Notes under the pieces: model-generated
The model's input: the letters and a program-made list of their open reading frames with translations, nothing else
Told to the model about the DNA's origin: nothing
Databases searched by the model: none
Shown: positions 25,173 through 54,597 of the stretch, one piece after another
Layout of the letters: each line of letters opens with the position of its first letter
Numbering within the stretch: the first letter of the stretch is position 1
Source: Candidatus Poribacteria bacterium
GTDB lineage: Bacteria; Poribacteria; WGA-4E; WGA-3G
DNA: 64,000 nt
Direction of reading: 5' to 3'
Assembly: GCA_965242965.1 (NCBI GenBank)
Contig: OZ251518.1
Location: forward strand, 256,001 to 320,000
Made by a program: the position numbers and the translations under genes

Positions 25173-28100
25173 ATGCGACACATCAAACCCATCGTTTGGC
25201 TCATCTTTATCCTCTCCGGCGCGAGCGGCCTCATCTATGAAGTGATATGGATGCGGCAACTGACGCTCATCTTCGGAAGCACGGTCTTCGCCACGACTAC
25301 GGTGCTAACTGCTTTTATGGCCGGACTAGCACTGGGCAGTTTCTATTTCGGCCGGCAGATCGACCGGAGTGCGCAGTCGCCGTTGCGAATCTACGCGCTT
25401 TTGGAGGCAGGCATCGGTGTCTTCTGCCTCGTGTGGCCGCTCATTTTAGCAGCACTGGGCGCGCTCTATGTGCTCATCCACCGTAACATCACCTCCGAAT
25501 TCTACACGCTTTCGCTCATCCGATTCGTGTTGACGTTCGGGGTGTTGCTGATTCCGTCAACGTTGATGGGCGGCACGTTGCCGGTGCTGACGCGCTTTTT
25601 TGTGCAACGTTTGGAACAACTCGGTGTCAACGTCGGGATTCTGTACGCGTTGAATACGTTCGGCGCGGTTATCGGGTGTGTCGCTACCGGCTTTTTCCTG
25701 ATTGAGCGGATGGGCATCCAACAGGCACTTTTCGTTGGGGTAGCGATTAACTTCGGCGTGGCAGGCGTAGCGGTGTTGCTAACGCGGGCGAGCGGACAAA
25801 GCGAAACTGAGTCAACGCGCTTGGAAAGCGCGCCTGCCGGTAATCTTAAACGCGGTCGCGAGAACGTAGATATCGGCGGTACGGAGAGAGACATCGTTCA
25901 CTCAGAAACCTTTATCGAACGCCTTGCGAATGACAAAAAATTGGTTTTGTGGGCAATCGGCGTTTCTGGGTTCTGCGCGCTCGCTTATGAAGTCCTCTGG
26001 ACGCGCATCCTTGTCTTCTTCCTCGGTAGCACGACGTATGCGTTTGCGACGATGCTGGCGGCGTTCCTGTTCGGCATTGCCCTGGGGAGTTTGCTGTTTG
26101 CGAGGTGGGTAGACAAACTTTCATCGCGCGCGATGGGTATTTTCGGCATCATCCAACTGGGCATCGGGTTCTTCGCGCTACTTCTGATGCCCGCGTTTGA
26201 GGAACTTTACGGGATGAGCCGCGCGTTCCAGTCCACCTTCGGCGGCGGCAGGTTTTGGGCATTCTTTTCCTGCTTCCTCGTGATGAGCGTGCCGACGTTT
26301 TTGATGGGTGCTAGTTTTCCTCTCGTGACGAAGATTTACACGGGCAACGCGAATCAACTCGGCAGGAGCATCGGGAACGTTTACGCAGTGAACACCGTGG
26401 GGAGCATCCTCGGTTCGTTTTGCGCGGGGTTTATCTTCATTCCGCTTTTGGGAATTCGCCCGAGCATCGTTTTGATGGTGGCATTGAACACCGGCATCGG
26501 ATGTTTGCTTCTCTTCTCAGCAGGCGCGGTTTTTCATCGCGCAACTGGAAAGGCGTTCCTACAAGGTGTCGGCATTGCGATGCCGATTCTGAACGTCGGG
26601 TTGGCGGTTATTCTGCTACTTACGGTAAACCAGCCGCTCTTCCTGAAGAGCGCGATTTTCAAAACGCAACGCCCCGGCGATACCCTCGTTGATTACAACG
26701 AAGAGGTAGACGCAACTGTCACTACACTGAAGGACGACGAAGGTGTCTATCGGCTCTATGTGGATACTAACCAAGCCGCTGATGCGTCGCGATGGGATTC
26801 GCCTTCGCATCGGGTGATTGCGCATTTGCCGTTGCTGTTGCATCCGCGTCCGAAACGCGCGCTCGTCGTTGGGTTTGGGATGGGGCTCACTTCGCATTCC
26901 ATCACGCAGCACGGGGTGCGCGTTGACGCTGTGGAATTGTCTAGCGGCGTAATCGCTGCGGCGCAAAAGCATTTCACGCATGTCAACGGGAATGTGTTTG
27001 ACAATCCGCTGTTCAATTATCGGCTCAACGATGGCAGAAATCACATCCTGATGACAGAGACGAAATATGATATGATTTCTACGGGCATCATTCATCCGCT
27101 TGTTAGCGCGGGGAGCTCTAATATCTACACGGCGGATTTTTATCGCTTGTGTAAACGGATTTTGACGGAGGATGGAATTATGTGTCAGTGGGTGCCGTTG
27201 CATCGGCTGCCGGAGGCGCACTACAAGATGATTGTGCGCACGTTCATTGAGGTGTTTCCGCACACGACGCTGTGGTATAAATACACTCCCGATTTCGTCA
27301 TCCTCATTGGCACGCAGGAGCCGTTGACAATTGACTACAAAAACTTCATTGAACGCGCGCGGATAGCAAGCATCAGCGAAGGGCTCGCCGCCGATGATCT
27401 GGACGGTATGTCGTTATTGGATTCGTTTATGATGGGCCCGGCGGCGGTTCGCGAGTATGCCGGCGAAGGGCCTATCCACACCGACAATCGTCCGCGCTTG
27501 GAATTCTTTAAAGGCGAGGCACTCGTCAATACGACAGCGCAAAACATCACGGGGATGGCGAAGTATCGGGAACGGGTTACGCCGTATCTTGCCAATTACG
27601 GCGCGACGTTGGATTCGCAAAAGCAGACGCGCCAGAAAATTGATACCTACTTTAACGCCACACAGAAGCTCATCCAAGGACAAATCGCCTACGCGAATGC
27701 GCAGTATGATGCCGCAGCGGCACTGATGAGCGAGGCGGTTACCATCAATGCTGTCGATGAGACGATTCGCTACAACTTCGGTGTCGTCTCCGGTCTGATT
27801 CGCGAGGATGAGCAGGAAGAACTCCGTCAAATGGAAGAACAGGTGCAGCGTATCCTTGCACAGAATCCAGACGATGTTCAGGGGCATCTCTATCTCGCCA
27901 CGCTTTATGAAATGCGCGGCGAACTTGCGAAAGCGGCGAGCGAATTGGAGGTAGTGCTCCAACGCGAACCGAATCGGGTTGATGTCTATTTGCTCCTCGG
28001 GCCGCTTTATGAGCGTCAGGAACGCTACGCCGATGCACTCCGCACCTATCAACGTTTAGAACAACAGGAGCCGCAACTGCCTGCACCGATTTTCGCGGCG

Positions 28101-28367
28101 ATGGCACAACTCCAAATGCTCCTCGAAAATCTGGAGGAGGCAGAACGTTACGGACAGAAGGGAATTGCTGTCGATGCAAATTCGTGGCGTTCGCACTACA
28201 TCCTCGCGAATGTGTATGGTAAGATGGCTCAACCGCAAAAGCAGCGACACTATTACGAAAACGCTTTGGCGGCGATTGACGCGGCACTCCGTTTGGAGCC
28301 CGATAACTCCGAGTTATCGCTCGCGAGAGAACATATTGAAAAAGAATTTAATCAGACCGAAAAATAA
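25173..28367 (+). CDS. Fused membrane domain / spermidine synthase-like methyltransferase with C-terminal TPRs
   Basis: SGASGLIYEVIW, FGST, FMAGLALG repeated twice; ALVVGFGMG, DAVEL, DGRNHI and TDNRP; TPRs at the C-terminus. Confidence 0.85.
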   Translation: MRHIKPIVWLIFILSGASGLIYEVIWMRQLTLIFGSTVFATTTVLTAFMAGLALGSFYFGRQIDRSAQSPLRIYALLEAGIGVFCLVWPLILAALGALYVLIHRNITSEFYTLSLIRFVLTFGVLLIPSTLMGGTLPVLTRFFVQRLEQLGVNVGILYALNTFGAVIGCVATGFFLIERMGIQQALFVGVAINFGVAGVAVLLTRASGQSETESTRLESAPAGNLKRGRENVDIGGTERDIVHSETFIERLANDKKLVLWAIGVSGFCALAYEVLWTRILVFFLGSTTYAFATMLAAFLFGIALGSLLFARWVDKLSSRAMGIFGIIQLGIGFFALLLMPAFEELYGMSRAFQSTFGGGRFWAFFSCFLVMSVPTFLMGASFPLVTKIYTGNANQLGRSIGNVYAVNTVGSILGSFCAGFIFIPLLGIRPSIVLMVALNTGIGCLLLFSAGAVFHRATGKAFLQGVGIAMPILNVGLAVILLLTVNQPLFLKSAIFKTQRPGDTLVDYNEEVDATVTTLKDDEGVYRLYVDTNQAADASRWDSPSHRVIAHLPLLLHPRPKRALVVGFGMGLTSHSITQHGVRVDAVELSSGVIAAAQKHFTHVNGNVFDNPLFNYRLNDGRNHILMTETKYDMISTGIIHPLVSAGSSNIYTADFYRLCKRILTEDGIMCQWVPLHRLPEAHYKMIVRTFIEVFPHTTLWYKYTPDFVILIGTQEPLTIDYKNFIERARIASISEGLAADDLDGMSLLDSFMMGPAAVREYAGEGPIHTDNRPRLEFFKGEALVNTTAQNITGMAKYRERVTPYLANYGATLDSQKQTRQKIDTYFNATQKLIQGQIAYANAQYDAAAALMSEAVTINAVDETIRYNFGVVSGLIREDEQEELRQMEEQVQRILAQNPDDVQGHLYLATLYEMRGELAKAASELEVVLQREPNRVDVYLLLGPLYERQERYADALRTYQRLEQQEPQLPAPIFAAMAQLQMLLENLEEAERYGQKGIAVDANSWRSHYILANVYGKMAQPQKQRHYYENALAAIDAALRLEPDNSELSLAREHIEKEFNQTEK

Positions 28368-28531: not shown

Positions 28532-30697
28532 ATGTCTCAAGAAGCTTATAGCAAGCTTTCCCCTAATCTTGGAAATCTTGGAAATCCTGCTCTAAAACGC
28601 ACCCACTATTGTGGTGCACTCCGCTTAACCGATGCCGGTGCAAGCGCGCAACTCAACGGCTGGGTGCAACGCCGCCGCGACCACGGTGGTGTCATCTTCG
28701 TTGATTTACGCGACAGAACCGGCATCACCCAAGTCGTCTTCGACCCGCAGATTGACGCGGCGGCGCACGAACGCGCGAGTGCTGTCCGCAGCGAATTTGT
28801 GCTAAACGTCAGCGGCACCGTCCGCGAACGCGAGCCCGGCGAACACCTCTTTCAATTAGAAGAGGCGAGGTATGAGTCAACGAGTCTTCTGACCTGGTCC
28901 GTCCGCTCTTCCGATGGGGAAGTGTTTTTCCACTCGGACACAAGGGAAGCAGAGGATGTGACACTGTCCTCGGCATTCCGTGCCAGATTCGCCGAGGTGG
29001 ACAAGAAATACACCCTCTCCGATGAACTGAAGTTCGCGGTGCGAGAGCCCGGCACGCGGTGGCTGCTCACCGATGTGGAAAATAACCGCACCTATGAAAT
29101 CCATCTCGCAGAAGCGCGGGAGAAAGGACGCGTCTTAAACGTCTACCAAGGCACCGTTAATCCGGAACTTGCCACAGGCGAGATAGAGCTCGCCGTGGAT
29201 TCCCTGAACATTTTGAACACGGCGAAAACGCCGCCGTTCCCCGTGGAAGACGATGTCGAGGTAGCGGAAGACATTCGGATGCAGTATCGGTTCATCGATT
29301 TGCGCCGGCCGACGATGCAGCAGACGCTCGCGATGCGCCACAAAGCCGCACTCGCCGCGCGCAACTATATGAACGAGAACGGCTTCTTGGAAATCGAGAC
29401 ACCCATCTTGATGAACAGCACGCCGGAGGGCGCGCGCGATGTCCTCGTGCCGAGTCGGCACTACCCCGGCAGATTCTACGCGCTCCCGCAGTCACCGCAG
29501 CAGTTCAAACAGATTCTGATGATGTCCGGCGTAGATAGGTATTTTCAAATCGCACGCTGTTTCCGCGATGAAGATACCCGGGCAGACCGGCAGTTGGAAT
29601 TCACGCAGCTTGACATTGAGATGTCCTTCGCCGGTGTCGATGATGTGCTGGAAGTCACAGAAGGGTTGATGAAGCGGATATTTGAGGAGGCAGGTGGCAT
29701 TCCTGTTGAAACGCCGTTTCAGCGGTTGTCTTACCATGAATCGATGGCGCGTTTCGGCAATGACAAGCCGGATACGCGGTTTGGCATGGAGCTGACCGAC
29801 CTCGGGGACATCATGGCTTCCTCCGATTTTCAGGTGTTCACGCGCGCGCTAGAAAGCGGCGGACAGGTGAAAGCCATCGCTGTCCCAGGCGGTGCAGACT
29901 TTTCGCGGAAGGACATCGATGATCTGACGAAGTTTGTCGGTATCTACCGTGCAAAAGGACTCGCATGGGTGAAAATCAATCCTGAAAATTCTGCAGATTC
30001 TGCTCAATTTTCATCTGGCATCGTCAAGTTCTTCAAACCGGGACAGTTGGAGACAGCGCAGGAGCGGACAGGCGCGCAACCGGGTGACATCATGTTCTTC
30101 GTCGCAGACCGGGCGAATGTTGTCGCCGATGCCCTTGGCAACCTTCGAACGCATCTCGCACGCAAGCTGAACCTGATTGACGAGAACCGCCACAACTTCC
30201 TCTGGATTGTTGACTATCCGCTTTTTGAGTGGAACGCCGAACAGCATCGGTATGAGCCGTTCCATCATCTTTTCACCGGCGCGACAGATGAGACAGTCGG
30301 TTTACTTGACACCGACCCGAGGAAAGTGCAGAGTCAACACTATGATCTGGTTTGCAACGGCTATGAAATCTGTAGCGGTAGCGTCAGAATCCACGAGTGG
30401 GATGTCCAACAGAAAGTTTTTGACGTTCTGCAGATTAGTCCGGAGGATGTCAAAAGTCGGTTCGGGTATTTCATCGATGCGTTGGCATACGGCACGCCGC
30501 CGCACGCGGGCATCGCTCCCGGCTTGGACCGGATTGTGATGCTGATGCGCAACGAGGATAACATCCGGGAAGTCATTGCGTTTCCGAAATCACAGCAGGG
30601 GCTTTGCCCTTTGACGCAAGCACCCTCTGTCGTGACAGAGGAACAGTTGGCAGAATTGTCTATCCGTGTGGATGCTCCGTTAGGCGCGGATGCCTAA
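28532..30697 (+). CDS. aspS: Aspartate--tRNA ligase carrying a ~103-aa insertion in its anticodon-binding domain
   Basis: RTHYCG, RRRDHGGVIFVDLRD (HGG suggests the non-discriminating type), TPEGARD, LPQSPQ, YFQIARCFRDED, GTPPHAGIAPGLDR and FPK. Confidence 0.96.
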   Translation: MSQEAYSKLSPNLGNLGNPALKRTHYCGALRLTDAGASAQLNGWVQRRRDHGGVIFVDLRDRTGITQVVFDPQIDAAAHERASAVRSEFVLNVSGTVREREPGEHLFQLEEARYESTSLLTWSVRSSDGEVFFHSDTREAEDVTLSSAFRARFAEVDKKYTLSDELKFAVREPGTRWLLTDVENNRTYEIHLAEAREKGRVLNVYQGTVNPELATGEIELAVDSLNILNTAKTPPFPVEDDVEVAEDIRMQYRFIDLRRPTMQQTLAMRHKAALAARNYMNENGFLEIETPILMNSTPEGARDVLVPSRHYPGRFYALPQSPQQFKQILMMSGVDRYFQIARCFRDEDTRADRQLEFTQLDIEMSFAGVDDVLEVTEGLMKRIFEEAGGIPVETPFQRLSYHESMARFGNDKPDTRFGMELTDLGDIMASSDFQVFTRALESGGQVKAIAVPGGADFSRKDIDDLTKFVGIYRAKGLAWVKINPENSADSAQFSSGIVKFFKPGQLETAQERTGAQPGDIMFFVADRANVVADALGNLRTHLARKLNLIDENRHNFLWIVDYPLFEWNAEQHRYEPFHHLFTGATDETVGLLDTDPRKVQSQHYDLVCNGYEICSGSVRIHEWDVQQKVFDVLQISPEDVKSRFGYFIDALAYGTPPHAGIAPGLDRIVMLMRNEDNIREVIAFPKSQQGLCPLTQAPSVVTEEQLAELSIRVDAPLGADA

Positions 30698-30742: not shown

Positions 30743-32317
30743 ATGAGTGAAAACAAAAACAGCAGTCTCAATCTGCTATTCGGCATTGTCATCGCTATTG
30801 TCGCCGGCGCGCTTATCGGTGGCATTTTTCCCGATTTCGCGGGGCATACCTCTATTCTCGGCGAAATCTTTTTGAATCTGCTGAAGATGATCGTGATTCC
30901 GCTTGTCATGCTCTCCATGATAGTCGGCATCACGAACCTCGGCGATATTCGCCACCTTGGTTCCATTGGCGGCAGGACCGTGCTTTACTACACGGCGACG
31001 ACAGGACTCGCTGTCCTCGTCGGCATCATCCTCGTCAACGTGGTCCTCCCGGGAAAAGGGCTCTCCAAAGGTGAAGAACTCCCTAACTTGCGCTATACCC
31101 TCAGCGGTGAGGAGATGCGGAACGTCGCATTAGATGGGAGATTCGAGAAAACCTATAACGACAAATATGTCATTACCCTGAAGGACCAGAATGTGAAAGG
31201 TGAGGTGGCATCTATCTCGGATACGGCGGTTACGGTAAAATCGTGGACGCTGCTGGACGAAGGCGTTACCTACGTGCCAACTACCACCGAGGAACGCTTG
31301 CTGTTCGTTGATGGCAAACTTGACAAACTGACACTCAACGCCACGGGACAAGGCATCGAAGTCTCTCTCCCGATTGCAGGAACTGTGGCCAAAAAGGACA
31401 AAAGCGTTGGCCAAACGCTCAAGGAGGTTGTCCTCGGCAACCATGAAACCGGCAAGGAGGGTATGATTCCGGAGAACGTCTTCAAGGCGATGGCGAACAT
31501 GGATATCCTGCCGCTCATCTTTTTCTCGCTGCTTATCGGTGCGGCGATATCCGTGCTAGGTGAACGTGGCAAACCCGTTGTCGCCGTGATTTCGGGGCTC
31601 AACGATGCCGTGATGCAACTCGTTCACTGGATTATGTATATCGCGCCGATCGGCATTTTCGGCTTAATTGCTGGCCGCATTGGGGAAGCGAAAGGGTTCG
31701 CCGGTTTCTGGCCCGAGCTCGTCGCGGTAGGCAAATACAGTTTCACGGTGGTATTAGGGCTTGGGGTTCACGGTGCTGTAGTGTTACCGCTCCTGCTCCT
31801 GCTGCTGGGCCGCCGGAACCCGCTGAGCTATGTGAAAGGCATGGCAACCGCCTTGCTCAATGCGTTTTCCACAGCAAGTTCCAGTGCTACCCTGCCGATT
31901 ACGATGGACCAGGTTGAAAAGAATAATGGGATTTCAAGCCGCACCTCTAGTTTTGTCATTCCACTCGGCGCGACGATTAACATGGATGGCACGGCGCTTT
32001 ACGAAGCAGTGGCTGTGATGTTTATTGCGCAAGTGTATGGGATTACGATGGATCCAGCGCAACAACTCGTTGTCGTTCTTACGGCGACACTCGCCGCCAT
32101 CGGTGCCGCTGGCATTCCGGAGGCGGGGCTTGTCACCATGGTCATCGTGCTCAGGGCGGTGGATTTGCCGATTGAGGGTATCACGCTGATTCTGTCTGTC
32201 GATTGGCTGCTTGACCGGTTTCGCACCACTGTCAACGTCTGGGGCGATAGCGTCGGTGCCGGTGTGATTGAAACGTATGAAAACAGAGGGGCAGCCGAAT
32301 CGCCTTCCTCAGCGTAG
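30743..32317 (+). CDS. Dicarboxylate/amino acid:cation symporter (DAACS/GltP family) with an enlarged loop
   Basis: GEIFLNLLKMIVIPL, AFSTASSSATLP, GATINMDGTALY, GAAGIP and DRFRTTVNVWGD. Confidence 0.92.
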   Translation: MSENKNSSLNLLFGIVIAIVAGALIGGIFPDFAGHTSILGEIFLNLLKMIVIPLVMLSMIVGITNLGDIRHLGSIGGRTVLYYTATTGLAVLVGIILVNVVLPGKGLSKGEELPNLRYTLSGEEMRNVALDGRFEKTYNDKYVITLKDQNVKGEVASISDTAVTVKSWTLLDEGVTYVPTTTEERLLFVDGKLDKLTLNATGQGIEVSLPIAGTVAKKDKSVGQTLKEVVLGNHETGKEGMIPENVFKAMANMDILPLIFFSLLIGAAISVLGERGKPVVAVISGLNDAVMQLVHWIMYIAPIGIFGLIAGRIGEAKGFAGFWPELVAVGKYSFTVVLGLGVHGAVVLPLLLLLLGRRNPLSYVKGMATALLNAFSTASSSATLPITMDQVEKNNGISSRTSSFVIPLGATINMDGTALYEAVAVMFIAQVYGITMDPAQQLVVVLTATLAAIGAAGIPEAGLVTMVIVLRAVDLPIEGITLILSVDWLLDRFRTTVNVWGDSVGAGVIETYENRGAAESPSSA

Positions 32318-53466: not shown

Positions 53467-54597
53467 ATGAAAGCACTCCTCAAAAGCCTTGCAGTGGCGA
53501 TACTCTTTATCCTCGCGGTGGGCGCGATTCTCGGTGCCTATATCCTTCAGGCACCGCCGGTTGCGCGACCCGGGCCGCCGAAATTACAAATCCATACGCG
53601 GACTGCGTTACGCGGCAGACCGGATGTGAATTCCAAACCGCTCGCCTACACGAAAGATGTCTACCGACACAGTTTGGCACCGGATTACATCAGCAACTTG
53701 AACAGCGGGGAATTCTCGCCGAAACTGCTGTTCAGCGCGGATTTGGCGCGGCGCGCGCCGTTGGAAGCCGAACGGTTGGACGCAGAATTGCGAGACGGCA
53801 TTGATTGGGAGAAAATGTTCGCCGATTTGACAGAGAACGTTAGGTTCAATGCCCGTTCGTCTGATTTAAAGGTGTTGCTCAGCGGGAAAGAGTGGCATCT
53901 CTTCGATGGGGCTGGCGCGAGGTATAAGGTGGCCCGGGTCCAAAATCGGTTGCATATCTCTCTGCCGGACTTAAGAGAGGCGTTTGAGATTAATAAGGTG
54001 CAGCTCTCCGACAAAACCGAGGCATCTGTTGAAAAGCCGGGGAGACAGTGGATTATCCGCGACATCGGCTATCAGCAGGCGTATACCGTAAAACTTGGCG
54101 GGCAAAAAGGTGAGAAGAAACTGAATGTCTTCCAGCAATCGAAAGTCGAGATTCTCCACTCGCTGTTTGATGCGGATGTGACATCGCAGCCCGCGTTGAC
54201 ATCTGGGCTTCTGAAAGCATCTTCGCAACACTACATTTCGGCAGAACTCCGCGCCGAGTTTGTGGAACAGAACATCGCGCTGACGCGGAAGGCGAAACTA
54301 TCGGTAATTGAAGAAGATAGAGAGTGGCTGATAACCGATGCCGGCCAGAAGTATCGTATCCGTTTGGAAGACGCACCGCAAGATGGCGGAAAAACCTCAA
54401 GGTTGAAGGTATACCTTGACGTGGATAGCGAATGGCTTCGCGTGCGGGTTGATGATAACCTGAAAGGCTGGGTGCAACGGCGGCGCGGGACGGTATTCCA
54501 ACCGCCGCCACCGCAGTTGAGCTCACGTCAACAAGCAAAAGCACGACTTCTGGTGCTGATTGACGACTTAAAATTGAAAATAGGAATAGGAGAATAA
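53467..54597 (+). CDS. Membrane-anchored SH3b-domain protein interrupted by three copies of an unannotated domain
   Basis: N-terminal TM; TALRGRPDVNSKPL ... SKVEIL ... DSEWLRVRVDDNLKGWV SH3b pieces separated by W.[IL].D...Y...L.V[YF] repeats. Confidence 0.7.
   Translation: MKALLKSLAVAILFILAVGAILGAYILQAPPVARPGPPKLQIHTRTALRGRPDVNSKPLAYTKDVYRHSLAPDYISNLNSGEFSPKLLFSADLARRAPLEAERLDAELRDGIDWEKMFADLTENVRFNARSSDLKVLLSGKEWHLFDGAGARYKVARVQNRLHISLPDLREAFEINKVQLSDKTEASVEKPGRQWIIRDIGYQQAYTVKLGGQKGEKKLNVFQQSKVEILHSLFDADVTSQPALTSGLLKASSQHYISAELRAEFVEQNIALTRKAKLSVIEEDREWLITDAGQKYRIRLEDAPQDGGKTSRLKVYLDVDSEWLRVRVDDNLKGWVQRRRGTVFQPPPPQLSSRQQAKARLLVLIDDLKLKIGIGE

Follow-up and report, generated by a model that had tools for sequence, protein, structure and literature searches.

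An uncatalogued small domain inserted in frame into the aspartyl-tRNA synthetase and many unrelated proteins of Poribacteria

Why is the anticodon-binding OB fold in one aspartyl-tRNA synthetase (AspRS) interrupted by about 100 extra amino acids, and what are they? The gene in question lies in a 64,000-nucleotide stretch of DNA from a Candidatus Poribacteria bacterium (contig OZ251518.1, positions 256,001 to 320,000), here called the window. An original prediction, made from the sequence alone, described an in-frame guest segment at 28841-29149 (residues 104-206, EHLFQ...LNVYQ) that splits a normally contiguous part of the enzyme and is homologous to repeats in a protein encoded from position 53467. 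Alignment with PDB sequences confirmed the split, and profile searches show that the insert is one copy of an uncatalogued small alpha/beta domain family rather than a peculiarity of AspRS. In sponge-associated Poribacteria this domain interrupts dozens of unrelated proteins, parts of the core translation, transcription, secretion and envelope machinery among them. The parts of the gene are as follows.

28532..30697, plus strand: host gene, bacterial-type AspRS, 721 aa (Pfam, PDB alignment)
28592..28837, plus strand: N-terminal part of the OB fold, residues 21-102, strands up to beta4, ending ...VREREP (aligned to Thermus thermophilus AspRS 2-79)
28838..29149, plus strand: guest domain insert, residues 103-206 (alignments, hidden Markov model, AlphaFold2)
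28868..28927, plus strand: nested 20-residue sub-insert within the guest domain, R113-F132, RYESTSLLTWSVRSSDGEVF (alignment; AlphaFold2 predicts extra beta strands)
29150..29221, plus strand: OB fold resumes, residues 207-230, GTVNPELATGEIE..., strand beta5 (PDB and 17-genome alignments)

Pfam assigned the tRNA_anti-codon OB fold to residues 41-103 (profile positions 3-63 of 75), the tRNA-synt_2 core to 246-688 and the GAD domain to 436-535; GAD, which is present separately in the same protein, was rejected as the identity of the insert. When all PDB chain sequences were searched with phmmer, residues 21-100 matched T. thermophilus AspRS 2-79 and residues 209-714 matched 82-579. Because of the gap that this alignment leaves, two residues of the T. 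thermophilus beta4-beta5 loop correspond to approximately 106 residues here, which places the insert, in frame, where the beta4-beta5 hairpin of this anticodon-binding fold has its tip. With its flanks the translation reads EPGEHLFQLE...RVLNVYQGTV, and the insert matched no Pfam family at E <= 1.

An 80-position hidden Markov model (HMM) built from 86 AspRS inserts alone was run without filters on the 57,628 six-frame open reading frames (ORFs) of the window's own genome (G000; 5.7 Mb, 94.7% complete). It matched the 53467 protein (8.7e-10, three copies) and, beyond it, five unrelated ORFs at E < 0.01: a membrane protein with two vWA domains (4.9e-14, two copies), a DUF4861 protein (6.9e-11), sigma-54 (8e-5), a double YibE/F membrane protein (5.6e-3) and a 319-aa membrane protein with CxxCH motifs (7.3e-3). 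Iteration converged at 16 copies in 12 ORFs of this genome, adding a Wzy_C protein, TamB, BamA, a histidine kinase and a PolyA_pol/CCA-type nucleotidyltransferase as hosts. The domain consensus spans approximately 75 residues, LLF.ID..F...L....LS.ELR..F....I.LS....V.V.....W.I.D.....Y.I......L.VY. Its W and D are invariant, and its Y nearly so, across 15 and across 35 aligned copies; the other positions conserved among paralogues are mainly hydrophobic or turn residues, and protein identity among copies is only about 20-35%.

The 53467 protein, which is kept in relatives at 303-376 aa, contains the following features.

53467..54597, plus strand: 376-aa membrane-anchored protein with three guest-domain copies and a weak SH3-like C terminus (Pfam, HMM)
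53725..53964, plus strand: domain copy 1, residues ~87-166, divergent (HMM)
53965..54138, plus strand: domain copy 2, residues ~167-224, without the N-terminal LF strand (BLASTP, HMM)
54160..54420, plus strand: domain copy 3, residues ~232-318, with a longer loop before the last strand (BLASTP, HMM)

BLASTP between the AspRS insert and this protein gave two alignments (E 3e-7 and 4e-5) that reproduce the two previously drawn by eye, and the HMM finds three copies, not two. The alignments also bear out the domain boundaries first described, which run from LF to L.V[YF].

Hosts were surveyed in four genomes, with 12 host ORFs in G000, 22 in G007 and 23 examined in G002 and G004 together, so that the expectation of many unrelated hosts was borne out by the HMM searches. 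G007, from the same order and another family, has 24 copies in its 22 ORFs. Its hosts by Pfam are UPF0182 (two tandem copies), DUF4861, a DsbH/GH76-like protein, a tetratricopeptide repeat (TPR) protein, a HEAT-repeat protein, CtaA/COX15, sigma-54, AspRS, a histidine kinase, an M23 peptidase, RseP (M50 with PDZ), Wzy_C, DUF5683 and a fusion with an extracytoplasmic function sigma factor; eight further hosts have no Pfam family. In G002 and G004, which belong to another class, the domain is found in signal peptidase I (S26), an S41 protease, a C25 peptidase, trigger factor, SecA, BamA, RseP, a major facilitator superfamily (MFS) transporter, an ATP-binding cassette (ABC) permease, a PMT_2 glycosyltransferase, ComEC, a ComF-like phosphoribosyltransferase and a RAMP-superfamily (CRISPR-associated) protein with two copies (L093 in G004:C1, a 694-aa ORF cut at one end). 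A match in the beta' subunit of RNA polymerase (RNAP), lying within a beta' insertion, is weak (E 1.1e-5). Altogether the four genomes yield approximately 34 distinct named host families. As had been proposed, the hosts work on both sides of the inner membrane: AspRS, sigma-54, SecA, trigger factor and the CCA/poly(A) polymerase-type nucleotidyltransferase are cytoplasmic, and BamA, TamB, M23, signal peptidase I, the PDZ region of RseP and the first external loop of CtaA are extracytoplasmic.

The insertions occupy hairpin or loop sites of their hosts, in agreement with the prediction of loop insertion. Pfam host models are split in the sigma-54 CBD, DUF4861 and CtaA and stretched in SecA and RseP. 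When hosts from G007 were aligned pairwise with the best match of each in G000, clean, unit-sized indels appeared in CtaA, the DsbH-like protein, RseP, M23, the HEAT protein and UPF0182; for CtaA, G007 reads ...MFLYPLSKTVSG[74 residues FLFS...DVYIH]GVLYEHSHRL, and G000 reads ...MFLYPLSEMVG-GVLYEHSHRL. Host domain thus lies on both sides of the guest, and the guest-less orthologues are contiguous, which is the A1-B-A2 architecture of an inserted module.

The same patchiness, which the original prediction had foreseen, is seen for AspRS itself. In a 17-genome alignment the site is identical throughout, VRERxE|insert|G(T/A/L)xNP, and five enzymes carry the insert, whereas 12 orthologues are contiguous there. 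By family (f1 to f8), the distribution is as follows.

f1, G000: AspRS insert present
f2, G001, G010 and G020: AspRS insert present
f3 genus g7, G007: AspRS insert present
f3 genera g9 and g11, G015 and G062: AspRS insert absent
f4, G053 and G080: AspRS insert absent
f5, G008, G013, G100 and G104: AspRS insert absent
f6, G046: AspRS insert absent
f7, G002 and G006: AspRS insert absent
f8, G004: AspRS insert absent

The five f4, f7 and f8 genomes have 9-15 domain matches each (those of G002 and G004 were re-confirmed), yet their AspRS proteins are 595-616 aa long and lack the insert; the domain family therefore predates its insertion into AspRS. A maximum-likelihood AspRS tree computed without the insert columns is compatible with a single gain, requiring one change, although weakly (support 65/81, 71% of bootstrap trees). 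In this tree, where L110-L113 served for comparison, the G007 AspRS (L060) groups with the f2 sequences (95/95), apart from the two other genera of its own family f3, which lack the insert. This points to loss in g9 and g11, to an aspS gene that was replaced laterally or recombined, or to a gene tree that does not match the taxonomy.

A 15-copy profile applied at E <= 0.001 to 121 genomes sampled from the window's GTDB phylum found the domain in 117, all with 6 to 24 matches apart from one that had a single match. No domain match was obtained in the remaining four, which belong to families f5 and f6 and are 89-95% complete. When the lone insert was compared with 1.84 billion representative proteins by phmmer, only 13 matches were obtained at E <= 0.001. 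Four are AspRS fragments. Six (P0091-P0093, P0095, P0097 and P0099) are giants of PKD, SpaA or DUF6242 type that align over 3-8 stretches each, partly via the sub-insert (LTWSVRSSDG-like), and these are probably chance matches boosted by repeats. As to a PKD identity for the insert itself, which would call for an all-beta sandwich, the insert has no PKD match in Pfam, its model includes a helix, and the fold lists contain no PKD chain. The remaining three are real carriers according to the A2 profile: a 2398-aa pentapeptide-repeat protein (5 copies), a 1392-aa protein (4 copies), and P0098, an 836-aa metagenome metacaspase whose two tandem copies, in the region of residues 1-240, lie between the beginning of the caspase domain at its N-terminal side and the Peptidase_C14 match (234-434). 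P0098 has no close orthologue in 61 sampled Poribacteria genomes, and the family therefore probably reaches beyond the sampled Poribacteria. Nothing was found when genome contigs were searched with P0098 or when viral contigs were scanned with one domain copy, and a word-indexed search with three non-Poribacteria-like copies returned only 8 metagenome proteins.

We favor the reading, at a probability of roughly 0.6, that the domain is a self-folding plug-in passenger, one that spread through rare in-frame insertions of duplicated copies and stays in the mature enzyme. The family would have expanded in Poribacteria, its copies duplicating and entering surface loops and linkers in frame as the phylum diversified, and the AspRS copy would have reached the tip of the beta4-beta5 hairpin in a lineage that already held the domain in other proteins. 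We infer that the domain is translated and stays in mature AspRS, and that its first (LLF) and last (L.VY) strands meet and keep the host hairpin closed, because the tight host loops are contiguous in guest-less orthologues. It would then project from the enzyme as a passive surface module with no part in catalysis. Precise deletion would be rare, and variants that misfold an essential single-copy enzyme would be purged, which may be sufficient for persistence; such a domain-level passenger could have been co-opted in some hosts.

The original prediction had also considered a self-excising unit, an idea that found no support. Inteins, too, insert in frame at conserved sites of essential enzymes, and a patchy distribution is likewise common to inteins and bacterial intein-like (BIL) domains. 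However, the insert starts (G)E-L/H-L-F, with L or F first, and ends L-x-V-Y-(Q), and the residue that follows is Gly in all aligned AspRS copies and A, H, M or E in other hosts. No conserved Cys/Ser/Thr or His-Asn was present at the junctions of any aligned copies, and the insert is therefore not an intein, just as the original prediction had noted the lack of intein hallmarks. Size and predicted fold differ too: the domain has approximately 75 residues and one helix compared with at least ~130 residues for Hint, and no Hint chain or Hint-like fold occurs among the fold matches, an absence that carries little weight by itself; no Rfam search was made for an intron. Constraint on the insert acts at the amino acid level, which indicates that it is translated. 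An intein-like protein element or an intron removed before translation is thus hardly credible. Public sequencing contigs from four runs bridge both junctions of the insert, with no insert-less joint among them; loose ends of these contigs reflect co-occurring relatives without the sub-insert or with a longer loop.

Could the insert instead be what is left of a mobile DNA element that jumped into coding regions and later decayed? Such an origin would suit the in-frame insertions, one unit in size and consistent in their boundaries, that occur in many housekeeping genes unrelated to one another. They resemble the Rickettsia palindromic elements (RPEs), in which a single unit recurs in frame in many genes that are unrelated and often of the housekeeping kind, and is apparently compatible with host fold and function (PMC10969869). 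RPEs are palindromic DNA repeats of ~150 bp recognizable at the nucleotide level, whereas the guest domain is a folded unit of ~225 bp without DNA similarity or palindrome, its copies are old, and its hosts differ between lineages. Searching the 5.7-Mb genome with the 321-nt insert (blastn, word size 9) recovered only the insert itself; other hits were no longer than 31 nt (16-21 nt bar one), with E >= 0.4. The junctions showed neither direct nor inverted flanking repeats, terminal repeats and target duplications did not exceed chance, and DNA folding showed no excess structure or palindrome (z = -0.56 versus 100 shuffles). The GC content of the insert, 0.56-0.57, equals that of the host gene, and a compositional island was rejected on this ground; a current element of RPE or miniature inverted-repeat transposable element (MITE) type was rejected for want of a DNA copy, junction repeats, a palindrome or a GC anomaly. 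Together with the 20-35% protein identity among copies, these results make even a decayed RPE- or MITE-like element very unlikely. The description of the domain as mobile therefore stands on an evolutionary time scale only, as no copy, repeat or palindrome is left in the DNA.

Among AspRS relatives, a search restricted to residues 98-210 found the insert in 85 proteins at E <= 0.01 out of 188 candidates. All 85 have AspRS Pfam domains, and two are named by NCBI as Candidatus Poribacteria. The typical insert-bearing enzyme is 669-680 aa long, with an insert of approximately 80 residues. The 20-residue sub-insert R113-F132 is common to 10 of the 85 (P0002-P0011, 712-758 aa). A variable loop lies ahead of the last strand (29104-29125), with ~40 extra residues in P0009 and also present in some of the window's closest relatives; sub-insert and variable loop are confined to these closest relatives (10/85). 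Fourteen positions of the insert do not vary among the 55 orthologues that were aligned: L106, F107, F153, Y160, L162, R171, W177, D181, N184, R186, T187, Y188, Y205 and Q206. Among AspRS orthologues, pairwise identity averages 62% in the insert, compared with 86% in the OB fold that flanks it and 87% elsewhere in the enzyme, and the insert diverges faster than its host, approximately three times as fast as the OB fold around it.

The position of the insert raises the further possibility that it was recruited in AspRS for tRNA recognition. We take the beta4-beta5 loop of AspRS to approach, and help to read, anticodon base 36. In the window's own genome, the best score against the asnS family of asparaginyl-tRNA synthetase (AsnRS) is 87 bits, below the cut-off of 342.6; gatB is present (576.6 bits), and only two class IIb catalytic cores (PF00152) were found, those of AspRS and of a 501-aa ORF. 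The loci tied to these observations are G000:C1:5258592-5259902 and C1:4078780-4080213. The lack of AsnRS, the presence of GatB and the two class IIb cores indicate that the insert-bearing AspRS is presumably the sole, non-discriminating enzyme of a genome with GatCAB, and Asn-tRNA is probably made there by the indirect route. Dual charging by non-discriminating AspRS has been attributed, in a review, to idiosyncratic features of the anticodon-binding domain (PMC9976931), and the AspRS copies do have invariant polar residues in common. Conversely, the insert-less AspRS proteins of 12 sampled genomes show that the enzyme can do without the insert, dozens of proteins unrelated to tRNA contain the same domain, and the insert evolves about three times faster than the surrounding OB fold. 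We consider such a co-option in AspRS improbable.

Fold prediction was consistent with a domain that folds autonomously. AlphaFold2 modeled the insert alone, from a 35-row alignment, with a mean predicted local distance difference test (pLDDT) of 78.8 and a predicted template modeling (pTM) score of 0.67. The predicted order is a strand at 4-8, the three strands of the sub-insert (12-34), a short strand, a helix at 46-55 and a four-strand meander at 65-105; the elements comprise beta1 HLFQL, the helix SSAFRARFAE and the meander YTLSDELKFAVRE / RWLLTD / RTYEIHLAEA / RVLNVYQ. A model of the whole AspRS from 55 close orthologues was poor (mean pLDDT 52.1, insert blocks 66-79), and how the insert is oriented toward the OB fold or tRNA could not be read from it. 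Searches of Pfam-A and NCBIfam with 15 copies singly (E <= 5), and of PADLOC with 35 copies, returned no family common to more than one copy. The best match of the domain profile among all PDB sequences had E 0.13. Foldseek against the PDB with the AlphaFold2 insert model gave nothing at E <= 0.001 (best 0.16), and the VIA fold search, which is independent of Foldseek, gave no Z >= 5 among 48,161 chains (best 4.7). The top VIA rows for residues 52-107 are single propeller blades, and the meander is therefore generic. Neither the insert nor the 53467 protein had a usable match in the ESM Atlas. The copies are homologous to one another by profile, the insert matches no known domain family, and the domain is without a recognizable relative in the catalogues and fold libraries, which does not of itself prove a new fold. 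A two-copy complex prediction for the insert scored 0.00; it was run without controls and is evidence neither way.

Several observations weigh against a mere passenger. The insert has been kept across three families in what is apparently the only AspRS of the genome, and it sits in a hairpin whose loop presumably bears on anticodon base 36. The 14 invariant positions include the polar residues R171, D181, N184, R186 and T187, which could reflect a host-specific function instead. All of the insertions seen are old.

Long retention can also be explained if the domain is a shared functional handle, binding a common partner, another copy of itself or a ubiquitous ligand, for regulation, assembly or localization specific to the phylum. 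Its retention phylum-wide (1-24 matches per genome), its long residence in essential proteins and the conservation of the membrane-anchored 53467 protein, which is little more than three copies, point in that direction, as do the tandem copies in the metacaspase and the pentapeptide-repeat giants outside the sampled Poribacteria, contexts typical of interaction modules. On the other hand, with hosts on both sides of the inner membrane, a single cytoplasmic or a single periplasmic partner is excluded; residues conserved among paralogues are mainly core or turn residues with no obvious common polar site, and host sets are almost wholly different between lineages. A shared handle is accordingly the less probable explanation, though the strongest competitor of the passenger reading. 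We are somewhat more doubtful still about a stronger proposal, in which either a Poribacteria-specific process copies a coding unit in frame (a "domain transposon") or a universal handle is read by a phylum-specific partner. If it were true, AspRS, sigma-54, SecA, trigger factor, RNAP beta', signal peptidase, BamA, TamB and others would share an added layer without known counterpart in other bacteria.

Returning to the passenger reading, the insertion of domains into loops is already well known, and the guest domain can be compared with several such cases. Lineage-specific modules of RNAP (SBHM/BBM2, BEAN, HABAS) are likewise small and beta-rich, and were inserted polyphyletically into loops of an essential enzyme (PMC11515920). 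The guest domain is concentrated in one phylum and found in approximately 34 named host families. The RNAP modules, in contrast, are known mainly from RNAP subunits and are spread across many phyla. Insert-only families in a survey of the ECOD database share the A1-B-A2 architecture and an inserted domain smaller than its host (PMC13114784); the guest domain differs in being absent from Pfam-A and NCBIfam and in having no recognizable fold match, and its diversity of hosts within a genome appears unusually high in a comparison with this survey that is not quantitative. GAD, typical of bacterial-type AspRS (PMC4206432), is also an extra in-frame domain of the enzyme, but it sits in the catalytic domain, whereas the guest insert interrupts the OB fold and occurs in only part of a single phylum. 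The guest domain resembles RPEs, RNAP inserts and ECOD insert-only families and is a member of none. A literature search, with the supplements of the compared papers outside its scope, found no description of the domain or of an AspRS OB-fold insert in Poribacteria.

What stands out is one small unnamed domain in ~34 unrelated named families over four genomes of one phylum, a pattern that was not found described in the literature searched. Single-copy essential enzymes from either side of the membrane are among its hosts. The domain amounts to an experiment of nature that reveals where core machinery tolerates a folded guest in its loops, and it is a candidate natural scaffold for insertional protein engineering. 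The clean presence/absence characters could serve Poribacteria phylogeny, and the family makes it testable whether protein domains can act as selfish passengers. In annotation, a family profile would account for many "oversized" housekeeping proteins of Poribacteria.

The next gene downstream of AspRS, at 30743-32317 (+), encodes a 524-aa sodium:dicarboxylate symporter whose Pfam SDF match is split between profile positions ~119 and 120. Its extra ~115 residues (roughly 125-240) constitute another in-frame insertion, beta-rich by eye, which the guest-domain profile does not match. The upstream gene, at 25173-28367 (+), encodes a 1064-aa fusion of MFS-like membrane and spermidine-synthase-like domains with C-terminal TPRs.

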